DNA from: an uncultured Candidatus Saccharibacteria bacterium
Lineage (GTDB): Bacteria; Patescibacteriota; Minisyncoccia; Phycocordibacterales; Zambryskibacteraceae
DNA length: 64,000 nucleotides
NCBI GenBank assembly: GCA_964349945.1
Contig: CAYGIH010000002.1
Location: forward strand, 46,937 to 110,936
Reading direction: 5' to 3'
Within the stretch, counting starts at the first letter, position 1. Each line of letters starts with the position of its first letter. The translations under genes were made by a program, and so were the position numbers. This document shows, piece after piece, positions 834-55,939 of the stretch. Under the pieces are notes generated by a model, which saw only the letters and a list, made by a program, of their open reading frames with translations, ran no database searches and had not been told where the DNA came from.

Positions 834-1814
834 ATGAAAGAACAACAAAAAGATATTAGGATTCGTCCTTTATCCCAATTAATGAAAATAGAGTTTCCAC
901 CTGTCGAATGGCTAGTGGATAAGCTCGTGCCTGTATCAAGTGTCATAGGCATATCGGGTTATCCCGCTTCTTACAAAACATGGTTTATTTTAGATTTAGC
1001 ATTAAAGGTAGCTAAAGGAGAAACTCTTTTTGATAAATTTAAAACTGGGCAAACTGGAGTACTTTTGGTTGATGAGGAAAATGGAGAGCGATCGCTTCAA
1101 AAACGATTCAACATTCTTAAAGCAGAAAGTTCTGATCTCCCTTTATATTGGACGTCCCTTAACGAATTCAAACTAACAAAAGATACGGTTGATTATTTGA
1201 TTAAGTCCGCAAATGAAAAAGGTGTAGGACTCATCATTTTTGACTCGTTAGTAAGAATTCATGAAAGCGATGAAAACAGTTCTCGAGAAATGGCTAAGGT
1301 AGCGTCATTGTTAAAGAGATTTACTAAAAATGATATAGCCGTGATCTTTACACACCACAACCGCAAGCCTAGTGGTGGGCAATCAAATCCCGCTCAAGAT
1401 ATGAGAGGTTCGTCTGATTTACTTGCTTCAATAGAAGTCCATATTGCTCTTTCGAGAAAAGTTGGAGGAAGAGTGGTTACAGTTACGCAGACAAAAATAC
1501 GAGACGGAGAAGAATCAAAGCCTTTCCAACTTGAACTGATATCAGACAAAGAACATTGTCATTTCCAATTCAATGGAACTGTTCAAGACAAAAAAGATGA
1601 AGTAATAGAAGCAATAAAAGAAACTTTGAAAACAAGAGACAACCTTCTTAGAAAGGAACTCTTTGAGTGCATAAAAGCGCTAGGTGTAAATGTCGGGAAT
1701 TCAACATTTAGTATGGCAACCAAAGAGATGATCTTAGATGAAGAACTCTTTGAGAGAAAAGGTTCCGGTAATAGTACATATTATTCACTAAAGCCTTTTA
1801 GCGAGAACGAGTAG
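834..1814 (+). CDS. RecA-fold P-loop ATPase, RepA-like (AAA_25/DnaB C-terminal-like) replication/primase-associated protein
   Basis: Walker A-like GISGYPASYKTW and Walker B-like GLIIFDSLVRIHESDE are present, plus a C-terminal HTH-like tail. This is the usual partner of integrases in integrative elements. Confidence 0.55.
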   Translation: MKEQQKDIRIRPLSQLMKIEFPPVEWLVDKLVPVSSVIGISGYPASYKTWFILDLALKVAKGETLFDKFKTGQTGVLLVDEENGERSLQKRFNILKAESSDLPLYWTSLNEFKLTKDTVDYLIKSANEKGVGLIIFDSLVRIHESDENSSREMAKVASLLKRFTKNDIAVIFTHHNRKPSGGQSNPAQDMRGSSDLLASIEVHIALSRKVGGRVVTVTQTKIRDGEESKPFQLELISDKEHCHFQFNGTVQDKKDEVIEAIKETLKTRDNLLRKELFECIKALGVNVGNSTFSMATKEMILDEELFERKGSGNSTYYSLKPFSENE

Positions 1815-1968
1815 ATTGAAATTCTCCTCTTATATAAGGGAAGAATATCAATCCGCTACCCACTTAGAACATATGAATGAGTAATTACACCAAAATCTCA
1901 AGACAAAACAGTGGCATAACTCTCCGTGAATTATCACGTATTCCAATGGATAATTAATCAATAAAATC

Positions 1969-3594
1969 ATGAATAAAACAAACGATAAAAACAGTAAAGT
2001 GGCCGTGGGGTATTGCCGTGTTAGTACTGACGATCAGGCAGATCAGGGTATATCTTTAGACTACCAAGAGGAACAGTGTAAAAAAGCAGCAGAAAAAGAT
2101 GGTTATAACGATAACGAGGTCCTCATTATTAGAGATGAGGGTAAAAGTGGAACAAACCTTAAAAGAAAAGGTATTCAAGAAATTATTGATCTCGCTAAGA
2201 AAAGAGAAATCTCAATTGTATATGTTACCCACTCTGATAGACTGGCTCGTAATATCGTCGACCACGCATTCTTAAGAAACACTCTACGAGCAAACAACAT
2301 AACTTTAAAATATCTAAACGGACAATCTTCACTCGACGACGCTTCGTCAATTATGGCTGACAACATGTTCGCTACGATTAATCAGTACCACAGTGATAAC
2401 ACGAGAGAAAAAACTAAACAGGCGGTCGATACTAAAGCAGAAGCGGGCTACTTCCCAACTCACGCTCCAGTTGGTTATATAAACACTTCTAACCCAAATA
2501 AAAATTGTGAGAAAGTGGCAAAGAGAATCATCATACCTAACCCCAAGACAGGACTCCTGGTAACCGAAGCGTTTAAAACATATGCTACAGGACAATATAA
2601 CGCCTACGAGCTCAATGATTTGATGTATGCAAAGGGACTTGTGAGCAATAGTGAAAAGAAGCTGAGTCCGAGTATGGTTTACGCAATGTTAAAAAATAAG
2701 GTTTATCTTGGTGAAATACATTGGATGGATATACATAATAAAAATGGTAAACACGAACCACTCATAGATAAGGATACTTTTAACCAAGTGCAAAATATTC
2801 TATCCGAAAGGAATCAGAACAGATGTAGAAGACGGAAGTATTTTTGGCTACTTAATGGTTATATGTTTTGTGCTGAACATAATTGTAGATACACCGCAGA
2901 ATGGCACTTAAATAAATCAAAGGCTTACTATCACTGCTCAAATAAGAAAGGTTGTGGTAAATATGTTGAAAAATCTGATCTCGAAAAACAAGTGGCACAA
3001 AAATTCAAACACTTAGAGTTTAACCAAGAATTTATTAATTCAATTATAGAAAAAGTAAAATCTATTTTTGATGAAAGAAAAAATGTATATCAGTCAGCAC
3101 AAAAAACACTACAAAGCAGAAAGAATGCATGTAATGCGAAATTAAGCAGTGCTGAAAATCGCCTACTCGATGAGACCTTATCAAAAGAAGATTACTTGCG
3201 AATAAAAGAAGCTGTGATAGCAGATACTTCTAGGATTGATAAAGAGTTGAATAATCTTCAGATTGGCCATGATATCAATATAGATCTTACCAGTGAGATA
3301 TTAGGCTTCACAAAGAATATATATAACACTTACATGCAGGCACCAGAGGAACTTCAAAAGAAATTCATAAGTCTTTTCTTTGAAGGATTTGATGTTAAAG
3401 ACGGACTTATAGTAAAAGACCGATACTCCCCATTGTTCCAAGAATTACTGAACTTAAACGCCCTCTCCATAAAAAGCCCATATGGCAGAAAAGCCGTTGA
3501 AAACAAAGGAAAAGAGAAACTTATATTAGATACATCTAGGGGTGGCTACCGGGAATCGAACCCGAATTGCGAGTTCCACAAACTCGAGTGTTAA
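1969..3594 (+). CDS. Large serine recombinase (resolvase/invertase N-terminal domain + recombinase domain + zinc ribbon + coiled coil)
   Basis: The N-terminus VGYCRVSTDDQ carries the catalytic Ser. A Cys-rich zinc ribbon (CAEHNCRYTAEWHLNKSKAYYHCSNKKGC) is present and the protein is 541 aa. Its last ~18 codons are read from the complement of tRNA-His. Confidence 0.85.
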   Translation: MNKTNDKNSKVAVGYCRVSTDDQADQGISLDYQEEQCKKAAEKDGYNDNEVLIIRDEGKSGTNLKRKGIQEIIDLAKKREISIVYVTHSDRLARNIVDHAFLRNTLRANNITLKYLNGQSSLDDASSIMADNMFATINQYHSDNTREKTKQAVDTKAEAGYFPTHAPVGYINTSNPNKNCEKVAKRIIIPNPKTGLLVTEAFKTYATGQYNAYELNDLMYAKGLVSNSEKKLSPSMVYAMLKNKVYLGEIHWMDIHNKNGKHEPLIDKDTFNQVQNILSERNQNRCRRRKYFWLLNGYMFCAEHNCRYTAEWHLNKSKAYYHCSNKKGCGKYVEKSDLEKQVAQKFKHLEFNQEFINSIIEKVKSIFDERKNVYQSAQKTLQSRKNACNAKLSSAENRLLDETLSKEDYLRIKEAVIADTSRIDKELNNLQIGHDINIDLTSEILGFTKNIYNTYMQAPEELQKKFISLFFEGFDVKDGLIVKDRYSPLFQELLNLNALSIKSPYGRKAVENKGKEKLILDTSRGGYRESNPNCEFHKLEC

Positions 3595-3613
3595 CCGTTA
3601 CACCATAGCCACC
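3541..3613 (-). tRNA. tRNA-His (anticodon GTG) with the G-1:C73 feature
   Basis: The reverse complement folds as a cloverleaf GGTGGCTATGGTGTAACGGTTAACACTCGAGTTTGTGGAACTCGCAATTCGGGTTCGATTCCCGGTAGCCACC. It has the anticodon loop TTGTGGA, a GTGT/ACAC D stem and a TTCGATT T-loop. Confidence 0.85.
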
Positions 3614-3627
3614 ATTATATGCACAAT

Positions 3628-4179
3628 CTAATTATAACTCGGCGGAGTCTCCTTTATACCAGATTTATGGTTGGATAGTCGAGCCAGAGCATAAAGTATA
3701 CTTGAAAGCCTGTTCATAAACTTGAGCGTTTGTTCTCCAAGTTTTATAGAATTTTCTGCATTCACCCCTACTACTCGCCTTTCTGCTCGACGAGCGATAG
3801 TGCGAGCGACGTCGAATGTGGCTGCAATGTCCGACCCTCCAGAGATGAAAAAAGTTTTAATTGGAGGCATCTCGTGTTCTACGAGGTCAATCCAATTTTC
3901 AACTTGCTTCACCTTCTCTTCACCGATGTGTTTATCTGCACCGGCGAGTTCTGCTTGAACCATAAAGAGATTTTCTTGGAGTATGTGCACTATACGAGCG
4001 AAAGAATCACCACCAACCTTGAGTTGCGCCTCTTCTGACTTCACCTTACATAATCCAAGAAATGAATTAATCTCATCCAAAGACCCAAGTGCTTCAGCTA
4101 TGGCTGAGCTCTTAGAAATCCTTTGGTCACAACCAAAAGTTTTTGTAGTCCCATCATCACCTTTTTTTGTGTATAACAT
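3628..4179 (-). CDS. ATP:cob(I)alamin adenosyltransferase, PduO type
   Basis: The YTKKGDDGTT motif near the N-terminus is the PduO-type ATR signature. The start is chosen at the internal Met of the 3628..4230 ORF. Confidence 0.65.
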   Translation of the reverse strand: MLYTKKGDDGTTKTFGCDQRISKSSAIAEALGSLDEINSFLGLCKVKSEEAQLKVGGDSFARIVHILQENLFMVQAELAGADKHIGEEKVKQVENWIDLVEHEMPPIKTFFISGGSDIAATFDVARTIARRAERRVVGVNAENSIKLGEQTLKFMNRLSSILYALARLSNHKSGIKETPPSYN

Positions 4180-4263
4180 GTGCACAAGAGAGGACTTGAA
4201 CCTCCACGGGTTGCCCCATACGAACCTCAATCGTACGCGTATACCAATTCCGCCACTTGTGCA

Positions 4264-4953
4264 TTAAGTAGAGCTATTTATGTGCTTTACTTTCAAGCCT
4301 ATCTTAGCGAAAGATTGAGCTATTTTCAATCTCTTTCTTGAAAGACACACAACATCCCTTGAATAGTACATTTTGCTCAAAATTTTGATTGAATCAGCCT
4401 TTGCGTATTTCAATTGTTCTGTACTACCCTTTCCATCTTTGGTTATATGCCCTTTAATACTTAAATGTTCAAAAATTCTTTTCTGCAACCAAAGAACAAA
4501 TTTTGGACTAGCAGAAGCAAACTCTGTATAAAACATAAAACTTGATTTCCATCTCTTGTCCCAATAAGAATAAAAGCACCCGTCTCCATCAAAACATCCG
4601 CGCAAAAAATCAAAGAAATATTCATTTGGTATATCAATTGCACCTATTGTCTTTGATTTTGCAGGAGTTAAACCAATCAACAAAAGAAATTCGTAAAATT
4701 TCTTGTTTTTAATTTGCACTCTTAATCCTTTTTTATTTAAACCTGAATTCTTTAAACCAATTTTTATATTTACACCAATACATTTATTAAAATTTTCGAG
4801 CTGTTCTCTATCATTTGAGGTCAGATCAATAAGATATGAGGTTTTAGATAAATAACCGTCTGTCGTAATCAAACCAATAGCATAAGCCAAATTACCTGAC
4901 CATTTTGTATTTATTACTATTTTTGATTTTCTTCCTCTATCCCCCATATGCAA
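4264..4953 (-). CDS. LAGLIDADG homing endonuclease (two-motif, single-chain), free-standing
   Basis: Two LAGLIDADG-like motifs are present: AIGLITTDGYL and LRGCFDGDGCF. Confidence 0.75.
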   Translation of the reverse strand: MHMGDRGRKSKIVINTKWSGNLAYAIGLITTDGYLSKTSYLIDLTSNDREQLENFNKCIGVNIKIGLKNSGLNKKGLRVQIKNKKFYEFLLLIGLTPAKSKTIGAIDIPNEYFFDFLRGCFDGDGCFYSYWDKRWKSSFMFYTEFASASPKFVLWLQKRIFEHLSIKGHITKDGKGSTEQLKYAKADSIKILSKMYYSRDVVCLSRKRLKIAQSFAKIGLKVKHINSST

Positions 4954-5461: not shown

Positions 5462-5494
5462 TGAAAAGGGCGGTGTCTCCTAGAGACACCGCCC
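5462..5494 (-). terminator. Intrinsic terminator for the GC-rich small gene
   Basis: Perfect 12-bp stem GGGCGGTGTCTC/GAGACACCGCCC, with an A-run on the plus strand giving a U-run on the minus strand. Confidence 0.7.
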
Positions 5495-5509
5495 AACCCC
5501 AGAAAAGGT

Positions 5510-5800
5510 TCAAGCAGCAGAACGCGCCGCTGCCACCATCTGCTCGTACGCAGCCCGGAATCGTGCCTCGTGCTCAGGGCGATACTTGTACTCCGGACGA
5601 GGATCGTGGGGTTGCCCCTCGAGATACTGAGCCCTCGACGGCGACCCTTCGCACACCACCTTGCCATCTTCGATGATAGGCAGAAGGTGACGTGGCGAGC
5701 CGAACAGCATGATCGTCGGATCATTGGCAGCATAGGCTGCGAAGATCGCTGCATCATTGTTGCTTGGGACATGCTTGCCGCACTTGTCGCACTTCATCAT
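5510..5800 (-). CDS. Hypothetical small protein with an N-terminal CxxC (MMKCDKCGKH...), strongly GC-rich
   Basis: GC-rich 97-aa ORF with its own promoter and terminator. The start was chosen at MMKCDK, preceded by a GAGG RBS. Confidence 0.5.
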   Translation of the reverse strand: MMKCDKCGKHVPSNNDAAIFAAYAANDPTIMLFGSPRHLLPIIEDGKVVCEGSPSRAQYLEGQPHDPRPEYKYRPEHEARFRAAYEQMVAAARSAA

Positions 5801-5843
5801 GGTGGACCTCGTGCTTATGTGGAATAGTGAGCCATCTACATAT

Positions 5844-5872
5844 ATAATAGCACCAATACAGCTAAAAGTCAA
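5844..5872 (-). promoter_or_regulatory. Sigma70-like promoter (TTGACT-17-TATTAT) for the GC-rich small gene
   Basis: The reverse complement reads TTGACT tttagctgtattggtgc TATTAT. Confidence 0.5.
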
Positions 5873-5891
5873 GTATTTTCATGGTTTTGTT

Positions 5892-6647
5892 TTATGGCTT
5901 AAAATCTATCTCTTTAAAGGAGTTTTGAAAATCTTCAGGGAAATCAGCCTTAATTGTATGCTCAACTCCATCTTCATCTTTGAAGGTCACTTCCTTTGCG
6001 TGCAAAGCCAATCTTTTAAATCCAAGCATTGGAGGTTTTGAGGATGCATAAAGTTTGTCACAAACAACTGGTCTTTGGAGAGACTGGAAGTGTACTCTGA
6101 TTTGATGAGTCCTTCCTGTTTTTGGTTTGGCTTCTATAAGACTAAACTCCTTTCCTCTTTTTAGAACTCTAAAATAAGTGACTGCATCCCTCATCTCCCC
6201 CGTCGCTCCACGACCCGCAGAATATTTTCTAAAATCACTTGGACTCTTGCCTATAGGCATAGATAAGGTGCCGTGATCTTCTTTCATATTGCCATACACG
6301 AATGCATAGTAAGTTTTATTTATCTTTCTCTTTAGAAATAAATTTTTCAAATGTTCGAAGCCTTTCTGAGTCTTGGCCAAGAGTAAAACACCGGAAGTAT
6401 CTCTATCCAAACGATGCACCACTCCAGAGCGATCTATGATGTCTCCCCCTTCGAGTCTAATCATCTCTCCCACCCCCTTGGCCTCAGGGAATTTCTCCAC
6501 AAGCCAACCAGAAACAGAGTCTTCTTTGGTCCTTCCATCCCCATGCACAATAATCCCAGCCGGTTTGTTTATGGCCAAGATATCTTCATTTTCAAAAAGG
6601 ATGGTTTTGGTTAAATCAATCATAGGTATACCAAGAGGATACATCAT
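5892..6647 (-). CDS. RluA-family pseudouridine synthase
   Basis: HRLDRDTSGVLLLAKT catalytic-Asp motif. The true start may be an internal Met. Confidence 0.8.
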   Translation of the reverse strand: MMYPLGIPMIDLTKTILFENEDILAINKPAGIIVHGDGRTKEDSVSGWLVEKFPEAKGVGEMIRLEGGDIIDRSGVVHRLDRDTSGVLLLAKTQKGFEHLKNLFLKRKINKTYYAFVYGNMKEDHGTLSMPIGKSPSDFRKYSAGRGATGEMRDAVTYFRVLKRGKEFSLIEAKPKTGRTHQIRVHFQSLQRPVVCDKLYASSKPPMLGFKRLALHAKEVTFKDEDGVEHTIKADFPEDFQNSFKEIDFKP

Positions 6648-10460: not shown

Positions 10461-10551
10461 GGAGGAGTGGCTCGAGCGGTTTAAGGCACCACTCTTGAAA
10501 AGTGGAATCTGGGCAACTGGATCGTGAGTTCGAATCTCACCTCCTCCGCCA
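10461..10551 (+). tRNA. tRNA-Ser (anticodon TGA), with long variable arm and encoded CCA
   Basis: GGAGGAGTGGCTCGAGCGGTTTAAGGCACCACTCTTGAAAAGTGG...GTTCGAATCTCACCTCCTCCGCCA, close to bacterial tRNA-Ser(UGA). Confidence 0.9.
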
Positions 10552-10638
10552 AAATTGTGATTCTTGATATTCTATATTTTTATGATATGGTTTGAACGGG
10601 TCGTTCTTTAGGCCCTCCCTCATCACAAGGAGTCCTGG

Positions 10639-11214
10639 ATGCGTATTCGTATGATGTCGCTCCTGTCCGCGGCGTTGCTCGCTGCGTGCACGAGCGAGCC
10701 CACTGCTCCAAAGGCGGTGGAGCAGGCTGTCTCCACTTCGAGTGACATGATGGCTCTCAAGGGTGGCAGCTGCACTCTCGCCGATGGTCGGGTTGTGGCT
10801 CCGGGCTTCAACGCCCTCGGTTACAACTACTGCGCCGGCCTTTTCAACGGCCCCGCGGATGGAACCGACAAGGTTCTCGACGGTAAGGTCTGGGGTGACC
10901 CAACCTATGCCGCAGATCACCTCGTCATGAAGTGGAACTCTGCATGGGATGCATGCAACGCAAATCGTAACGTCACGAACTGCACCGGCGCCTGGACCGA
11001 CAATGAATGGAATGGCAAGGTGGCCGGAGGAAGCGGAGAGTCCTGGCACTACAAGATCAAGTGGGTGGGCTCGTGCGGATCATACGGCACACCCCTCGCA
11101 AGTGGCGGATACTGCATCTGGAATGAATATGCAGTATTGTTTTCCCACGGGTCAGTGGCCAACCAACACTTCTGGGACACTCACGCCAAGCCGGCCGGCT
11201 ACGGCACCCAGTAA
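10639..11214 (+). CDS. GC-rich lipoprotein (signal peptide with LAAC lipobox), function unknown
   Basis: N-terminus MRIRMMSLLSAALLAAC. The CDS is much more GC-rich than its surroundings, with an AAGGAG RBS and a terminator after it. Confidence 0.55.
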   Translation: MRIRMMSLLSAALLAACTSEPTAPKAVEQAVSTSSDMMALKGGSCTLADGRVVAPGFNALGYNYCAGLFNGPADGTDKVLDGKVWGDPTYAADHLVMKWNSAWDACNANRNVTNCTGAWTDNEWNGKVAGGSGESWHYKIKWVGSCGSYGTPLASGGYCIWNEYAVLFSHGSVANQHFWDTHAKPAGYGTQ

Positions 11215-11224
11215 GATTTCCCAC

Positions 11225-11258
11225 GGGCGCGATGCAATAGCACGCGCTCTTTTTTTAT
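11225..11258 (+). terminator. Intrinsic terminator after the GC-rich lipoprotein gene
   Basis: GCGCG...CGCGC stem followed by TCTTTTTTT. Confidence 0.5.
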
Positions 11259-11291
11259 TATTTAGATTTATTTTTGTGCTAGAATTTATGT

Positions 11292-11762
11292 ATGGCAAAG
11301 ACAGATCTTCGTCTTGAATGGACTGCTCAAGAATATGAACATAAAGAAAGAACTCAGGATTGGTTCTGGGCAGTAGGGATTATTACTGTCTCTATCTCCA
11401 TTGCTTCAATTATCTTTGGGAACATCATTTTCGGCATCTTTATTTTGGTAGCAGCTTTTTCTCTTTCCCTATACATAAACCGTCCACCAGAAACTCTCCA
11501 AATGAAGATTGACTCTATGGGTATAGCCAGAAATAAAATTTATTACCCCTTTGAGACTCTTCACTCATTCTGTATAGATATAGAACACCCGCACAAAAAA
11601 ATAATCCTTCGCTCAAAAAAAATGTTTATGCCTCTTATAGTCGTCCCTCTTGGTGAAGAAGTTAACTTTGAAAAAGTTAATGCAATATTAAAAGAATATC
11701 TCCCCGAAGAATATCACGAGCTTCCTTTCATGGAGAACATTTTGGAATTCTTAGGATTCTAG
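11292..11762 (+). CDS. Hypothetical membrane protein
   Basis: Two TM helices near the N-terminus. Confidence 0.35.
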   Translation: MAKTDLRLEWTAQEYEHKERTQDWFWAVGIITVSISIASIIFGNIIFGIFILVAAFSLSLYINRPPETLQMKIDSMGIARNKIYYPFETLHSFCIDIEHPHKKIILRSKKMFMPLIVVPLGEEVNFEKVNAILKEYLPEEYHELPFMENILEFLGF

Positions 11763-11834
11763 TGCTCCCAGTAGGAATCGAACCTACATTTTAACTTCCG
11801 CAAAGTTATGTCCTATCCATTGAACGATGGGAGC
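11763..11834 (-). tRNA. tRNA-Arg (anticodon reads GCG; loop TTGCGGA)
   Basis: The reverse complement GCTCCCATCGTTCAATGGATAGGACATAACTTTGCGGAAGTTAAAATGTAGGTTCGATTCCTACTGGGAGCA folds as a cloverleaf. Its D-loop AATGGATA is shared with the Arg(TCT) tRNA. Boundaries are accurate to ±1 nt. Confidence 0.7.
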
Positions 11835-12813: not shown

Positions 12814-13167
12814 TCAACAAACATCTCCAACTGGACCTCTGTAGTGAAGCTCGATTTCACCCAAGTATCTTGTGATTGAATCACCCATTTCCTCAATGGA
12901 TATAGAATCATCAAATACACCTTCAATCCTGGCCATTACCACTCCGAGAGGCTCTTCGTTTATCCTTGGTTCCGGCCAGGCTCTGAGGTTGAGGTCGTAC
13001 AATCCCCTCATGAACTCCCTGACCTCCTTGATCTCCCAGGGAGACCTTTTGAAAACCTCCTCAGACAATGGTCCAAGCATAACAACATAGCCCTCTCTCC
13101 CCATCCCAGTGAGAAATGAACTCACCCGCCCACCCTCGTTCACCTCGAGCAAAAGATACCGATTCAT
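12814..13167 (-). CDS. Hypothetical protein (moderately GC-enriched)
   Basis: 117-aa ORF with no motif recognised. Its composition is somewhat GC-richer than the neighbouring genes. Confidence 0.3.
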   Translation of the reverse strand: MNRYLLLEVNEGGRVSSFLTGMGREGYVVMLGPLSEEVFKRSPWEIKEVREFMRGLYDLNLRAWPEPRINEEPLGVVMARIEGVFDDSISIEEMGDSITRYLGEIELHYRGPVGDVC

Positions 13168-15091: not shown

Positions 15092-15135
15092 CAACTTGAA
15101 TTAATAACCCTGCATGCTAGGGTATTCGAAGATTC

Positions 15136-15687
15136 ATGTACCTACATAAGGAGCCTAAAGTGACCCAGCCACTCATCCGTGTACCAGAACCAGACCCGAA
15201 CTTCGTTGGGCCTCAATCGTGGTTGAATTACCTCAATGACGGTAGTTCAATTTGTTTCTATGAAGACGTGCATTATTACCTGTCGAACTTCTCCGCCTTC
15301 GCGCTTGTGCTTGGTGGAGAACTCTGGATGACCGTGGAGCACGCCTATCAGGGTTTGAAATTCGACCCGAAGCGTTACTCTGCAATCCGTTCACAAATCA
15401 AGGATGCTCTGTCGGCGCATGAGGCCAAGAAACTTGCATACTTGTGCAAGGATTGCATTCGGCCAGACTGGGAAGCTGTGAAGCTCGACATCATGCGGGG
15501 TTTGATCCATGCGAAGATTCAACAGCATCCGTATGTCCAGAAGAAACTTCTCCAGACTGGTGATGCCGTCCTCATCGAGAACTCGCACAGGGACTCATTC
15601 TGGGGTCGCGGACCAGACTGGCAAGGTATGAATCACCTCGGTCGAATCTGGATGGAGCTCCGTGGTGAACTGAGGAAAATGAAGTGA
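15136..15687 (+). CDS. NADAR-domain protein (YbiA-like N-glycosidase/ADP-ribose-processing fold), GC-enriched
   Basis: Motifs SNFS, VEHAYQGLKF, DSFWGRGPDWQGMNHLGRIWMELR are present. The start may instead be the GTG at 15160, which follows an AAGGAG RBS. Confidence 0.7.
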   Translation: MYLHKEPKVTQPLIRVPEPDPNFVGPQSWLNYLNDGSSICFYEDVHYYLSNFSAFALVLGGELWMTVEHAYQGLKFDPKRYSAIRSQIKDALSAHEAKKLAYLCKDCIRPDWEAVKLDIMRGLIHAKIQQHPYVQKKLLQTGDAVLIENSHRDSFWGRGPDWQGMNHLGRIWMELRGELRKMK

Positions 15688-15694
15688 GATTATC

Positions 15695-15718
15695 GAGCAC
15701 CAATAGGTGCTCTTTTTT
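15695..15718 (+). terminator. Intrinsic terminator after the NADAR gene
   Basis: GAGCACC aata GGTGCTC followed by TTTTTT. Confidence 0.6.
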
Positions 15719-20104: not shown

Positions 20105-20518
20105 CTACTTGATGCACCCTCCTCGGCCGTTCGGGAGGTTCAGATAATTCACCTCCCACACCTCGTTCTTCTCCCCTTCGTACGAAGAGATCGAGTAGCG
20201 ACGGGTGTCGGTGCCGAGAAATTCTTTCTTCTCGTTGTAACCTCTGACAACGAGAGTGAATTCGCCATTTGTGAAAGGTTGGCGAACCAGTGGTGCAACA
20301 ACGTGATCTGCATATGGCAAGCCAACGCTGTAAACGACTGTGCCCGTAAAAACATCAATATACGGCACACAATTGTTTTGCACGGTCACCAGCACTCGCT
20401 GTTGAAGCGAGACCGTACCAAACCTTGGCCCGTGTGGCTGTTGGATGATGACCGGAGCACATGCGCTCTGGCTCATCACGACACCCACAACGATGAGGGT
20501 TGAAAGGAACTTGCGCAT
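20105..20518 (-). CDS. GC-rich lipoprotein, function unknown
   Basis: The N-terminus MRKFLSTLIVVGVVMSQSAC has a signal peptide and lipobox-like Cys. The CDS is strongly GC-rich and preceded by a GGAGG RBS. Confidence 0.5.
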   Translation of the reverse strand: MRKFLSTLIVVGVVMSQSACAPVIIQQPHGPRFGTVSLQQRVLVTVQNNCVPYIDVFTGTVVYSVGLPYADHVVAPLVRQPFTNGEFTLVVRGYNEKKEFLGTDTRRYSISSYEGEKNEVWEVNYLNLPNGRGGCIK

Positions 20519-52747: not shown

Positions 52748-53830
52748 TTATTCGGTCGGCTCTTCCGACTCATCCATGGACACAGCATCACCACGGCGAG
52801 AACGGATCCTCTTGGTCCGCTTGCCACTGTTGATGTGGTCACGCATGAGGATGTAGAGCATGTCAGCAGCCTTACCGTTGCCGGTGGCCAGACTGACGAT
52901 CTGCGGGTCGTTGATCGGGAAGAGAGAAATCTTGCGACGAAGCGACGCTTCGACGGTCAAGACCTTCTCATCCGACTCACGCCAGAAATCGTAATGATCC
53001 GACATGAGACGAGCGAGCACGTTCAGAAAGGTGCTCTTCACGTAGATGGCACCTTCACGATACTGGATGCGCTTGATTCCCCAGCACTCATCAACGAGCT
53101 GGAAAAAGGTCTTGGTATTCGATCGAAGGATCTGAACACCGAAGACATCAACCGCCTTATCGAGAGCAGGCACCAGTTCGTCAACGGAAGTCCGTCGCGC
53201 TGGAGCCTTGTGCGAATGCAGGTGACCAACCACCTTGAGCATGGTGAGAGCGGAGATGAGCTCCCCGCGGGTCATCCGCTGATTCCACGAGACACGGTCA
53301 TTCAGCGGGAAGCCCTTGTCGCTCGTCGAGAGCGAATAGAGGGTTGCCACTGAAGAACTGTCCTCTCGCCTGTTGCGCAGAATCACATTCGGCGACACCT
53401 TGTTGCGCAAGGTGTTCAAGATGCGGAAACGCTCCCGTTCCCACTCCTTGGTTGTGCCGAAGTGAATAGTCGCACCGAGTCGCACCTGCGCAGCTGAGTT
53501 CTGGGCCAGGAAGTGGATCGCACCATTGACGCGCTGAAGGCCGTCGATGATGTAAACCTCGTCCTTGAGCAGAGCCGTACCTTCCCTTTCGGAAAAGTTC
53601 TCACCGCGCATGCCGAGTTCGATGTCAGGAAGAGTTTCCCCTCCCTTGAGGGCTCCCAGAATGCTACTGAGAGCAGTGATCGGCGCAGCCTCACGCTGGT
53701 AGTCGTCGATCTTCAGGTGGACCAGACTATTCTGGTCGACCACACCACGCAGGACGATTTCCCCCTTTGGGGTTTCGTCGAGAGCGCAGTGGATGATGCG
53801 GATAGGCGCATCAGCCTTACGTGCGTTCAT
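52748..53830 (-). CDS. DGQHR/ParB-like-nuclease-fold protein (DndB/DUF262-related), GC-rich
   Basis: The motif YIIDGLQRVNGAIHFL matches the DGQ(H/Q)R signature of DndB/DUF262 ParB-fold proteins. The start was set at MNARKA, which follows a GGAG RBS. The CDS is strongly GC-rich. Confidence 0.55.
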   Translation of the reverse strand: MNARKADAPIRIIHCALDETPKGEIVLRGVVDQNSLVHLKIDDYQREAAPITALSSILGALKGGETLPDIELGMRGENFSEREGTALLKDEVYIIDGLQRVNGAIHFLAQNSAAQVRLGATIHFGTTKEWERERFRILNTLRNKVSPNVILRNRREDSSSVATLYSLSTSDKGFPLNDRVSWNQRMTRGELISALTMLKVVGHLHSHKAPARRTSVDELVPALDKAVDVFGVQILRSNTKTFFQLVDECWGIKRIQYREGAIYVKSTFLNVLARLMSDHYDFWRESDEKVLTVEASLRRKISLFPINDPQIVSLATGNGKAADMLYILMRDHINSGKRTKRIRSRRGDAVSMDESEEPTE

Positions 53831-53930
53831 TGCCCATCTCCATGTAATTGGGCTGTGAAAGAGCATCTCGGAGCAGTAGACTCAAAATGGTCTCTTATGT
53901 CCGAGGATTCGTCAACCGACGAAATCAAGA

Positions 53931-53962
53931 CGATTTTTACATATTTGTAGAGGGTTTGTCAA
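53931..53962 (-). promoter_or_regulatory. Sigma70-like promoter (TTGACA, ~17-nt spacer, TAAAAA/AAAAAT) for the DGQHR gene
   Basis: The reverse complement reads TTGACAaaccctctacaaatatgTAAAAAtcg. Confidence 0.4.
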
Positions 53963-53977
53963 TTATAAAATTAAGCA

Positions 53978-54019
53978 AAAGAAAACCGCGTTGCAGAGAA
54001 GGTTCTCTCTGCAACGCGG
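53978..54019 (-). terminator. Intrinsic terminator after the Pro-rich membrane protein gene
   Basis: Perfect 14-bp stem CCGCGTTGCAGAGA/TCTCTGCAACGCGG followed by a U-run. Confidence 0.65.
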
Positions 54020-54044
54020 GTACTAAGGTGCTTTGATTCTGGTG

Positions 54045-54848
54045 TTACGAACGCGCCGGCGGTGGCAACACGATGCGAGTGCCGTCCTCGTAGAAGAGAA
54101 CGACCTCATGCCGAACTGGCATAACGATCGACGGAGCCGGTGCCGGGGTCGGGGCAGGAACCGGAACGACAGGAGCCGGCGGAGCGACCACTGGGGTCGG
54201 CGTCGCGGGCACAGGCGTCGGTGCCGGAGCAACCGGAGCGGGTGCTGGCGTCTTGGGCGGAGTGTTCCGTCCGTTCAACCAGTTCCACAACTCACTCAGG
54301 AACCAGAAGATGACCGCGAGGAGCAGACCCAGGAAGAGAATGCTCAGCAGGAACTTGAAGAGGTCCCAAAGCCAGTTGGCGGCCCGTTCGAACCAGCCCC
54401 CATTCTGCTTTGCGAGCGTCTTGTTCACCGCCGTGTAGAGCTCCTTGTTCTGCTCCTTCATGGTGGCGACTTGCCGTTCGAGGTCCGCGAGCATCTCGCG
54501 ACATTTCGGGCACTCGCTCGCCTTCACGATGCGGTTGGTGCAATCCGCTTTGTAGCGGAGCGTACCATCCTGGTCGGCCCACACGATCGTGCCGCGCACG
54601 AGCGTCTCGAGGACGAAACGATTCGTGTTGTTGAAGTAGTTGAGCACCGTGACGGTGTCAGCGAGCTCAACGGCGTGCAGACCGAGCTTGGCCTGCATGG
54701 CCGGGGTCATCTCGCCCTGCTTCATGATCGGGTACTTGTTCAGCTCGGCCTCGGCCGGCGCTGCGTACGTTCCCCGCTGAGCCAGAGCGTTAGACGCTCC
54801 ACCGAAGGTGAGGACGACGATGAACATGGACAGCAAATACTTGCGCAT
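54045..54848 (-). CDS. GC-rich signal-peptide protein with an extracytoplasmic domain, a single TM helix and a Pro/Ala/Val/Thr-rich C-terminal tail
   Basis: MRKYLLSMFIVVLTFGGASNALA signal peptide, TM FKFLLSILFLGLLLAVIFWFL, and a PAPAPVAPAPTPVPATPTPVVAPPAPVV tail. Confidence 0.5.
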   Translation of the reverse strand: MRKYLLSMFIVVLTFGGASNALAQRGTYAAPAEAELNKYPIMKQGEMTPAMQAKLGLHAVELADTVTVLNYFNNTNRFVLETLVRGTIVWADQDGTLRYKADCTNRIVKASECPKCREMLADLERQVATMKEQNKELYTAVNKTLAKQNGGWFERAANWLWDLFKFLLSILFLGLLLAVIFWFLSELWNWLNGRNTPPKTPAPAPVAPAPTPVPATPTPVVAPPAPVVPVPAPTPAPAPSIVMPVRHEVVLFYEDGTRIVLPPPARS

Positions 54849-55006
54849 TTGTAGCTCCGTGGTGTGTGGTCTCTGAGTTGCGAACGATTCGCAACCAATG
54901 AATCAAAGTAAAGGTTCTTCGCACTATCTTTTTTAATATTAGCATATTCAAACCTATTTGTCAATAGAGCAAATAAAGCCTATAAATATGAGTAAATGTT
55001 ATAATA

Positions 55007-55939
55007 TTGTGCGACATGGCTACGACAGAACTTGAAAATTTAAAACGGCAATTTCTCGAACACACGGAGATTGAGAGAGGTCGTGCACTCAAAACTATTG
55101 AGAACTATGATCACTATCTCACTCGGTTTTTAACTTTTTCTAAAGCAAAGAATGCAAAGGATATAGATGAAAGTTTAATTAGAGAATTTAGGTTGTGGTT
55201 GAACAGACAATCAACAGGCAACAATAGAGCGACGAGGCAAACTCTTTCTAAAAAGACTCAGAATTATTATATGATTGCTCTTCGTGCGTTTTTAAAATTT
55301 TTGGCCAAAAAAGGAATCAAATCTCTTTCACCGGAAGTAATAGAATTAGCAAAAGTGCCTGAACGACACCTCGACCTCATCTCCCCTTCTGAACTCACTC
55401 GACTCCTCGATGCACCGAAGGGTGATGATTTAATTTCTCTCCGAGATAGAGCCATCTTAGAATTATTTTTCTCTACCGGTCTTCGTGTTTCTGAACTTGC
55501 GTCGCTTACAAATGATTTGGATTTAAAGGCTGATGAATTTTCTATCAGAGGTAAGGGCAGTAAAGTGCGTGTAGTTTTCCTTTCGGACGAAGCCAAGGAT
55601 GCTTTGAAGAAATATTTGGCTGCGAGGAAAGATATGAGTGATGCGATGTTTGTCTCTGTGGGTGGTGAGTCTAAGAAGAAAGAACCCACCCAACTCACTC
55701 GTCGGTCCATAGAGAGGTTAGTCAAAAAATATGCTATTAAGGCTGGGATATCGAAGAAAGTTACTCCTCACGTTATCCGCCACTCCTTCGCCACTGACCT
55801 ACTCTCGAACGGTGCAGACATAAGAAGTGTCCAAATGCTCCTTGGCCACGCGAACATCTCTACTACGCAGATTTATACACATGTGACAGACAAAGCCCTT
55901 CGAGACACCCACAAAAAATTCCACACAAGGAGAAAATAG
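55007..55939 (+). CDS. xerC: Tyrosine site-specific recombinase, XerC/XerD type
   Basis: C-terminal catalytic region HVIRHSFAT...LLGHANISTTQIYTHV with the catalytic Tyr. Confidence 0.8.
   Translation: MCDMATTELENLKRQFLEHTEIERGRALKTIENYDHYLTRFLTFSKAKNAKDIDESLIREFRLWLNRQSTGNNRATRQTLSKKTQNYYMIALRAFLKFLAKKGIKSLSPEVIELAKVPERHLDLISPSELTRLLDAPKGDDLISLRDRAILELFFSTGLRVSELASLTNDLDLKADEFSIRGKGSKVRVVFLSDEAKDALKKYLAARKDMSDAMFVSVGGESKKKEPTQLTRRSIERLVKKYAIKAGISKKVTPHVIRHSFATDLLSNGADIRSVQMLLGHANISTTQIYTHVTDKALRDTHKKFHTRRK

Follow-up and report, generated by a model that had tools for sequence, protein, structure and literature searches.

A probable horizontally acquired lipoprotein gene directly behind tRNA-Ser(UGA) in a Minisyncoccia genome

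Genomes of the candidate phyla radiation (CPR) and of DPANN archaea are usually discussed in terms of gene loss. Here we ask how one of them came by a gene: how did a GC-rich gene for a lipoprotein of 191 amino acids (aa) come to lie directly behind tRNA-Ser(UGA) in an AT-rich genome? The stretch analysed, called the window below, is 64,000 nucleotides of DNA from an uncultured Candidatus Saccharibacteria bacterium (assembly GCA_964349945.1, contig CAYGIH010000002.1, positions 46,937 to 110,936 of the forward strand); the host belongs to the Minisyncoccia (CPR/Patescibacteria). A sequence-only reading of this DNA had proposed that a foreign gene was inserted at the 3' end of the tRNA, a classic integration site. 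Our analysis leads us to regard the gene as, in all probability, horizontally acquired: it forms an islet by itself, about 0.7 kb long, with tRNA-Ser(UGA) on one side and a conserved gene for a membrane protein on the other. It is a mosaic gene at a hot spot, with a probable Gemmatimonadota-like source, and we see in it one case of repeated transfer from high-GC to low-GC genomes.

The gene and its empty counterparts

ARAGORN and Rfam agree that the encoded CCA end of tRNA-Ser lies at 10551, as the sequence-only reading had it. The abrupt switch of composition that it had described on both sides of the gene also holds: the GC-rich block runs from about 10596 to about 11249 and GC content changes within about 20 nt at either end, and such islands are not unique in the window. 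The sole long intact open reading frame (ORF) downstream of the tRNA starts 88 nt past it, against a proposed 90 bp (Table 1). Its GC content is 0.59 and its GC content at third codon positions (GC3) is 0.70, compared with 0.39 for the window and a median of 0.315 for GC3 in the window's ORFs (robust z 6.4); codon positions 1 and 2 have GC contents of 0.54 and 0.53. The N-terminus, MRIRMMSLLSAALLAAC, carries arginines at positions 2 and 4 of a charged n-region, a hydrophobic stretch (h-region) and the lipobox L14-A15-A16-C17, a match to the pattern [LVI][ASTVI][GAS]C.

The insert is organized as a transcription unit. In its leader, TTGATA (10564-10569) and TATGGT (10586-10591) are separated by a 16-nt spacer, with TG at 10583-10584 before TATGGT. 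At the other end, the terminator that had been proposed is a hairpin followed by seven T residues, with a folding energy of -16.4 kcal/mol (z = -3.3 versus shuffled sequences); a simple terminator scan overlooked it because of its 11-nt loop. The 5' untranslated region (5'UTR) gave no signal of structured RNA (fold z = -0.2), and an Rfam scan of the window returned only tRNAs.

Table 1. Features of the tRNA-Ser(UGA)/lipoprotein locus, in window coordinates
Feature	Coordinates	Strand	Basis and remarks
tRNA-Ser(UGA) with encoded CCA	10461..10551	+	Host gene; 3' end is the left edge of the insertion site; ARAGORN and Rfam RF00005
Inserted segment, about 711 bp	10555..11265	+	Defined against the empty-site relative L101
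AT-rich leader with promoter-like site	10552..10595	+	Promoter scan; part of the 5' module common to L102; absent from L101
GC-rich 5'UTR with ribosome-binding site (RBS) AAGGAG (10628-10633)	10596..10638	+	Sequence; 41/43 identical to L102
191-aa lipoprotein ORF	10639..11214	+	ORF list; 1042 homologs; all 28 invariant family residues present
Type II (lipoprotein) signal peptide, lipobox LAAC, Cys17 codon 10687-10689	10639..10689	+	Translation
Low-complexity linker (aa 18-44) up to the breakpoint of the mosaic near 'ALKGG'	10690..10770	+	Alignment A6, per-segment identities
Mature conserved domain, about 147 aa, beta-rich	10771..11211	+	Six Cys; many invariant Trp/Tyr/Asp/Asn/Gly
Intrinsic-terminator-like hairpin GGGCGCG-A-UGC-AAUA-GCA-CGCGCUC (11225-11249) and T7 (11250-11256)	11225..11256	+	RNA fold; right end of the GC-rich block
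Host sequence resumes: extended -10 TG-c-TAGAAT (11277-11285) of the downstream gene	11266..11291	+	Alignments A3 and A5; kept in empty-site relatives
Host 156-aa membrane-protein gene	11292..11762	+	Right-hand syntenic anchor for finding empty sites

Was the gene always there? With the downstream 156-aa gene as anchor, we found three relatives that lack it. Two metagenome loci (L083 and L087, 62-64% protein identity) retain the order RuvX(-), DUF5652(+), tRNA-Ser(tga)(+), 156-aa gene(+), tRNA-Arg, with gaps of 24 and 40 bp between tRNA-Ser and the 156-aa gene. The third is a collinear Minisyncoccia genome (GCA_049295975.1, here L101) with about 81% nucleotide identity to the window. Its gap of 53 bp consists of a small hairpin (about 25 nt) and the promoter-like motif of the 156-aa gene. 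Homology between the window and L101 stops 3-4 nt after the CCA (after CCAAAA) and restarts at about 11266, at TTTTTGTGCTAGAATTT...ATG, leaving the window with about 711 extra base pairs. The ancestral arrangement, retained in these three relatives, is the tRNA directly abutting the 156-aa gene. These empty sites bear out the proposed insertion of a foreign gene just 3' of tRNA-Ser. What the sequence-only reading had named as its refutation, a lipoprotein gene kept here by the relatives with unchanged composition, was not observed.

An abrupt switch of composition in a metagenome-assembled genome (MAG) could also arise if the assembler had spliced a high-GC fragment into a CPR contig. An independent Logan assembly from another sequencing run (ERR3094292, L100), retrieved by exact look-up of the identical 191-aa protein form P0121, is 100% identical to the window over 1309 bp (10526..11834), both junctions included. 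This identity rules out an assembly chimera or contamination, to which we give next to no weight. The insert, moreover, is a precise transcription unit between intact host signals, and in a genome of a different lineage (L102, described below) this site is occupied by homologs of both the leader and the gene.

Could the gene instead be native and vertically inherited, its GC-richness a product of amino-acid composition or codon selection? Gly, Ala, Trp and Pro abound in the protein and push up the GC content of the first two codon positions, and the average family copy in a low-GC host slightly exceeds its neighbours in GC content. GC3, however, is independent of amino-acid composition, and it stands at 0.70 in the gene versus 0.32 in the host. 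Many family copies in low-GC hosts have a host-like GC3 of 0.22-0.40; the family is therefore not GC-rich by nature. The gene's nearest relatives lie at unrelated loci, and three syntenic relatives have empty sites. We therefore consider native inheritance very improbable. The inserted gene has evidently been kept in working order: identity between the window copy and the closest one, L002, is 0.83, 0.92 and 0.56 at the three codon positions, which indicates purifying selection on a functional gene.

A dispersed family of exported proteins

What kind of protein does the islet encode? We found 1042 homologs, the best with E = 1e-84 at 71% identity. The profile search of the lipoprotein domain that the sequence-only reading had suggested collapses them to 285 clusters at 50% identity, a family with no Pfam entry. 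Nearly all members have 150-200 aa and one domain, behind a Sec or lipoprotein leader that varies; the N-terminus is lipobox-like in 113 of 204 family proteins, and others have visible signal peptides of the A-x-A type. Conservation in the core of about 140 aa is striking: 28 positions are invariant, with Trp, Tyr, Asp, Asn or Gly at many of them (alignment A1, with the window protein as row 1), and the window protein has every one: G61, N63, A66, F69, D74, G75, D77, G86, Y90, D93, M97, W99, W103, A118, W119, N122, W124, N125, G126, G131, Y138, G156, Y158, W161, G171, W179, A183 and P185. Six cysteines in its mature part (45, 65, 106, 115, 146 and 159) fit an extracytoplasmic, disulfide-bonded protein. 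AlphaFold returned a confident beta-rich model, with a predicted local distance difference test (pLDDT) score above 90 at residues ~45-180 and of ~50-56 at residues 1-40.

Searches for a known relative gave little. The 191-aa protein has no match in Pfam and, in NCBIfam, only weak matches to lipoproteins at the level of the signal peptide. Comparison of the confident model with the PDB and with structural folds (lectins and carbohydrate-binding modules, double-psi beta-barrels, OspA-like proteins and others) gave no significant match. No neighbour gene is conserved across 80 loci. Longer members contain no Pfam domain, only insertions or a tandem duplication, so that there are no informative fusions. 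Full-text searches of the literature turned up no mention of the family, nor of islets of this sort in CPR genomes. The family is undescribed and unnamed, and it is unusually promiscuous in its spread.

Three features, namely an export signal, invariant residues that are aromatic or acidic, and the motif DGxDxxLDG (DGTDKVLDG in the mature domain here), lead us to a tentative proposal, which we hold to be doubtful: the product may be a surface-anchored protein that binds an extracellular ligand, either a glycan or the cell wall, for example in the attachment of an episymbiont. Expression is easier to propose: most likely, the gene would be transcribed from the AT-rich, extended -10-like leader (TTGATA-16-TG-n-TATGGT), possibly helped by read-through from the tRNA, and translation would be driven by the strong RBS AAGGAG. 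The hairpin would end transcription before the downstream 156-aa gene, whose promoter-like motif stays intact. The product would then be exported by Sec, lipidated at the predicted Cys17, disulfide-bonded and presented at the cell surface; there the beta domain, rich in Trp, Tyr, Asp and Asn, may bind its ligand.

Where did the gene come from? The family is encoded at 175 genome loci, with identities of 45-70%. Its CPR carriers include Paceibacterota, Levy-, Woese-, Roizman-, Collier- and Kaiserbacteria and 'Saccharibacteria'; the DPANN carriers are Woesearchaeota and Nanoarchaeota; and it occurs in Gemmatimonadota, Chloroflexota, Acidobacteriota, Actinomycetota, Caldisericota, Atribacterota and others. 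A neighbour-joining (NJ) tree thoroughly interleaves these taxonomic groups. Composition is more orderly. Across the 80 loci used to compare genes with their flanks and neighbours, the gene's GC content minus that of its flanks nowhere falls under -0.05, and it is above +0.10 at 14 of them, all in low-GC hosts. The gene is 0.03-0.24 GC-richer than its surroundings in low-GC hosts and matches its neighbours in high-GC hosts. Gene GC3 follows neighbour GC3 (r = 0.79), with a difference near zero in high-GC hosts and above +0.2 at 11 of 38 low-GC loci. By composition, the family is native to high-GC, free-living Gemmatimonadota, Chloroflexota, Acidobacteriota and Actinomycetota. In CPR and DPANN genomes of low GC content it recurs as GC-rich islets whose sites are unrelated, which indicates repeated independent transfer from high-GC organisms to these ultra-small prokaryotes, followed by amelioration, a slow shift of base composition towards that of the host.

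For the window copy, a recent gain by this groundwater bacterium, the donor was most likely Gemmatimonadota-like. In the NJ tree this copy groups with the islets L002, L003, L006 and L007, and native Gemmatimonadota copies form the sister group. The islets in low-GC genomes that cluster with it are L002 (gene GC 0.66 vs 0.41), L003, L006, L007 and L098 (0.59 vs 0.37). Close homologs are native in high-GC contigs that encode metabolism of a free-living type, such as L097 (0.60 vs 0.58) and L099 (0.62 vs 0.64). The closest copies have only the RBS and coding sequence in common; their flanks are unrelated.

Several of these records deserve comment in their own right. Six third-party-annotation MAGs labelled 'uncultured Gammaproteobacteria' (L006, L016, L019, L021, L026 and L062) and one labelled 'Chloroflexi' (L056) have GC contents of 0.38-0.43 and group with CPR copies, and their taxonomic labels look unreliable. 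L056 shares the exact Nanopelagicaceae gene/tRNA-Arg(tcg) arrangement and holds four extra near-copies of the tRNA-Arg 3' 16-mer (7643, 9221, 9693 and 11432). A CPR islet copy from Paceibacterota (P0002, WC783_02260) and a native copy from Gemmatimonadaceae (P0133, WC700_07990) have neighbouring locus-tag prefixes. This suggests that both MAGs come from the same groundwater study, and hints that organisms of the recipient and donor types co-occur.

A mosaic gene and its route of entry

A sister genome, L102, is about 82% identical to the window, and its tRNA-Ser is 100% identical to the window's. Behind the tRNA, L102 has a 155-bp filler, an 18-nt direct duplicate of the tRNA 3' end (2412-2429; 17/18 match), and then leader, UTR, signal peptide, linker and mature domain; the duplicate lies immediately upstream of the homologous leader. 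The two genomes are alike in the leader (27/33, with an 11-nt indel), UTR (41/43), signal peptide (46/54) and linker (53/72), so that identity across this 5' module is 74-95%. In the mature domain it falls to ~51% for DNA and ~33% for protein, and the terminators are not homologous (23/42). The mature domain of L102 has a GC content of ~0.62, and its nearest relatives, at 60-65% identity, are Gemmatimonadota proteins of a different subfamily. The shared 5' module was not found upstream of any other family member. Judged from these alignments, the gene is a mosaic whose parts meet near 10770 ('ALKGG'): in front of this breakpoint lies a leader and export module specific to the locus, and behind it lie mature domains of different origin. 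The mature domains of the window and of L102 come from different Gemmatimonadota-type subfamilies.

One could extend this observation. The tRNA-Ser flank might act as a 'landing pad' for expression and export (an att-like tRNA 3' end, an extended -10, a UTR and a signal peptide) onto which mature-domain cassettes of one surface-protein family, captured from Gemmatimonadota-like bacteria, are swapped again and again. We think this improbable.

The region between the tRNA and the duplicate in L102 (2258-2429) has its own peculiarities. The 155-bp filler holds an inverted 15-nt copy of the T-arm, GGTGAGATTCGAACT (2301-2315), and looks like the scar of an element that was integrated and then deleted or inverted. 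tRNA-Ser(tga) lies at 10461-10551 in the window, 2169-2257 in L102, 4863-4951 in L101 and 2359-2447 in L094. The allele of the window and L102 is the same; that of L101 differs at about 20 positions, with compensatory changes (D-arm, anticodon stem and variable arm), and is similar to the allele of L094, a more distant genome. The window, L101 and L102 are about equidistant overall (0.80-0.82), and the unusual tRNA-Ser allele co-occurs with the inserted 5' module. The idea that the body of the tRNA had been replaced along with the insertion was dropped, because genome-wide identity to L101 is itself only ~81%.

The same flank differs from one relative to the next. It is empty in L101, L083 and L087, as described above; it holds three genes of ordinary GC content in L090, an inverted tRNA and two genes in L084 and L085, and a complex state in L102. 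The 3' flank of tRNA-Ser is a recombination hot spot in the genus, with at least four states of occupancy. The 18-nt duplicate in L102 further shows that recombination of the att type has acted at tRNA-Ser: at least one such duplication has occurred in the genus.

Several results weigh against the reading set out so far. An integrase would be expected to leave the attL/attR repeat GAATCTCACCTCCTCCGC, and the direct repeat of the tRNA-Ser 3' end foreseen near 11215-11290 is absent. No copy exists anywhere in 10552-11400 (best matches 8/12, 10/15 and 12/20), and a repeat search also found none. No integrase lies in or adjoining the islet, whose insert is one ORF. As for a vehicle, none of the IMG/VR contigs, phage records or plasmid records encodes the family. 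The donor is assigned from composition and from an unsupported NJ tree of a 133-column alignment, and many taxonomic labels of MAGs are doubtful. The GC3 of the 5' module, ~0.73 in both the window and L102, fits awkwardly with simple vertical inheritance since divergence to ~81%; third-position identity in this module is 19/26 versus ~0.60 in host genes, over few sites. Finally, the proposed binding function stands without a Pfam, PDB or fold relative, conserved neighbours or informative fusions.

A repeat of another kind was considered and rejected. The AT-rich flanking repeat D1 (10572-10593 / 11247-11268) might have been a target-site duplication, but 662 of 2000 shuffled sequences match it and it resembles the host's generic extended -10 motif.

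How, then, did the islet enter? One answer is the classic integrative island that targets a tRNA: an integrase of the tyrosine or serine type put a circular element into the tRNA-Ser 3' end, and the cargo gene is what is left of it. The left junction, 3-4 nt past the tRNA CCA, is where such an element should begin. The duplicate and the inverted T-arm fragment in the filler of L102, and the different occupants of the site in L090, L084/L085 and L102, agree with it, and recombinase genes exist elsewhere in the window. The nearest, however, encode a serine recombinase (1969-3594) and a tyrosine recombinase (55007-55939), none within 7 kb of the islet, and the expected repeat is missing. One gene makes up the whole insert. 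The family has no consistent tRNA target or orientation: its members adjoin many different tRNAs in both orientations, or none, without flanking repeats. Another islet in the window with the same architecture (5462-5892) is not adjacent to a tRNA. Even the repeat in L102 flanks the 155-bp filler rather than the lipoprotein gene and may record a later, separate event. The view of the tRNA 3' end as a classic integration site is thus borne out only in part: L102 has its duplicate, but the islet has neither repeat nor integrase and the family no consistent tRNA. We rate the classic island at slightly below an even chance. A decayed insertion of the integrase type, which has since lost attR and the integrase, has in our view about an even chance of being what happened.

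The alternative is uptake of DNA from a high-GC neighbour or host, followed by illegitimate or microhomology-mediated recombination; adjacency to the tRNA would then mark no more than a permissive, well-transcribed intergenic spot. CPR bacteria encode a type IV pilus and competence machinery, and the window contains PilM and PilN genes (from the annotation of the collinear L101). At least six GC-rich islets of one or two genes and of different ages are found in 64 kb, two of them beside tRNAs; that others, such as 5462-5892, are not tRNA-adjacent favours this option. The absence of repeats, integrase and phage or plasmid vehicle agrees with it, and proximity to tRNAs is only weakly enriched in the family (6 of ~76 independent loci, p = 0.03-0.18). 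Uptake leaves the duplicate in L102 unexplained. Nor does it account for a junction exactly at the end of the tRNA, or for two family members behind the same leader at the same site. We regard it as a reasonable possibility, at somewhat less than even.

By either route, the horizontally acquired islet taken alone is textbook in style: the phenomenon (a tRNA hot spot and amelioration) is known, the family undescribed. The mosaic of leader and mature domain is a small surprise. More striking is that a secreted family with no structural match crosses phyla and the boundary between Bacteria and Archaea, and enters CPR and DPANN genomes preferentially and directionally. The Gemmatimonadota-like donor signal, together with the mosaic, offers a testable lead on interaction partners and on the renewal of surface proteins. 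On the improbable landing-pad reading, and if the donors are the physical hosts of these episymbionts, the islets would represent transfer-driven variation or mimicry of a host-interaction protein, and their composition and phylogeny would trace the unknown hosts of CPR and DPANN organisms.

Other islets and comparison with known systems

At least five further GC-rich islands of one or two genes are present in the window: 5462-5892, 15095-15716, 20105-20518, 52748-54848 and the milder 12814-13167. The first (minus strand, GC 0.57) is a single-gene insertion that widens the gap between the L19 and RluD genes to 470 bp, versus 42 bp in L101. Its architecture is that of the lipoprotein islet: an AT-rich, promoter-like TTGACT-17-TATTAT, an ORF of ~96 aa from the ATG at 5800 (MMKCDKCGK...) and, before a run of T residues, the hairpin GGGCGGTGTCTC/GAGACACCGCCC. 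This islet has no Rfam match. The island at 15095-15716 holds a NADAR-domain gene (15136-15687; Pfam E = 9e-27; GC 0.51, GC3 0.60) that lies 44 nt past tRNA-Lys(ttt) and has its own terminator. A NADAR gene also lies past tRNA-Lys in L101 (9211-9756; GC 0.49), which makes this an older, partly ameliorated acquisition beside a tRNA.

The island at 52748-54848 consists of two adjacent GC-rich genes, for 372 aa (GC3 0.68) and for 267 aa with a signal peptide (GC3 0.79, the maximum in the window). A tyrosine recombinase gene of host GC content (55007-55939; Phage_integrase, E = 1e-44) adjoins the pair, and 52748-55939 may be an integrase-associated islet. The 267-aa protein (54045-54848) has only seven homologs, one of them in another Minisyncoccia at 63% identity. 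With so few, this gene was uninformative on whether the window's other islets share a common donor, and that idea was set aside. The 137-aa ORF at 20105-20518 (minus strand; GC 0.52, GC3 0.61) has a signal- or lipoprotein-like N-terminus, MRKFLSTLIVVGVVMSQSAC..., and no Pfam or PHROG match. The ORF at 12814-13167 (minus strand), between RuvA and Fpg, has a GC3 of 0.53 (robust z 3.5), no Pfam match and a shorter counterpart in L101 (6630-6863, GC 0.50). Near the start of the window, 834-4953 may be part of another integrated element: it contains a large serine recombinase gene (1969-3594; Resolvase, Recombinase and Zn_ribbon_recom domains) whose end overlaps tRNA-His (3539-3612, minus strand), with tRNA-Leu (4180-4262) nearby.

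Islets of this kind have a practical consequence. A shadow ORF of 170 aa lies antisense to the lipoprotein gene (10537-11049, minus strand) and has a counterpart in L102, where a 184-aa ORF of the public gene call (2374-2928) covers the GC-rich family gene but lies on the minus strand, the wrong one. GC-rich islets in AT-rich genomes create long antisense ORFs that mislead gene callers.

How does the lipoprotein islet compare with systems already described? Williams is said to have described, in Nucleic Acids Research in 2002, the integrase-mediated insertion of genomic islands at the 3' ends of tRNA and tmRNA genes. Like those islands, the islet starts at a tRNA 3' end, has atypical composition and variable presence, shares its site with different cargo in relatives, and has an att-like duplicate in a sister genome. 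It differs in being a single 0.7-kb gene in a window without integrase or att repeats at the islet (attR is absent), from a family with no fixed tRNA target. The islet does not qualify as an integron cassette, for it has neither attC nor IntI: the terminator hairpin is the sole inverted repeat on the 3' side, a promoter-like leader precedes the gene, and no integron integrase is adjacent.

In architecture the islet recalls the phage morons that Juhala and colleagues reportedly defined in 2000 as promoter-gene-terminator units of deviant GC content between conserved genes. Like them, it consists of a single ORF with a leader that resembles a promoter and with a stem-loop terminator, contrasts sharply in composition and sits precisely between two conserved neighbours. 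Unlike a moron, it sits in a CPR chromosome outside any prophage, among RuvX, DUF5652, tRNAs, S20 and RuvA; the family is in no phage or viral record, and the PHROG match is weak (E = 0.003).

The mosaic structure invites comparison with the polymorphic toxins of contact-dependent inhibition (CDI) and Rhs systems, in which a conserved N-terminal module carries exchangeable C-terminal domains. Here too a conserved leader and signal-peptide module (74-95%) precedes mature domains that are ~33% identical and have different nearest relatives. In contrast to those toxins, only two alleles were seen, with no orphan cassettes, immunity gene or toxin signature, and the exchanged domain is homologous, from the same family. 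As a predicted substrate of Lgt and LspA the window protein is, from its sequence, canonical in n-region, h-region and lipobox (LAAC with Cys17), and more than half of the family has a lipobox-like N-terminus; many other members differ in having ordinary Sec signal peptides.

A parallel for the family as a whole is the model of amelioration of horizontally transferred genes, reportedly put forward by Lawrence and Ochman in 1997. Copies at the 80 loci range from strongly GC-rich to host-like in low-GC genomes and match the host in high-GC genomes, as expected for transfers of different ages. What sets the present case apart is that one small family forms the series, across many phyla and two domains of life, with a direction of transfer that we infer. 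Such a compositional gradient over many independent insertions is a natural series for the study of amelioration and gene gain in streamlined symbionts.

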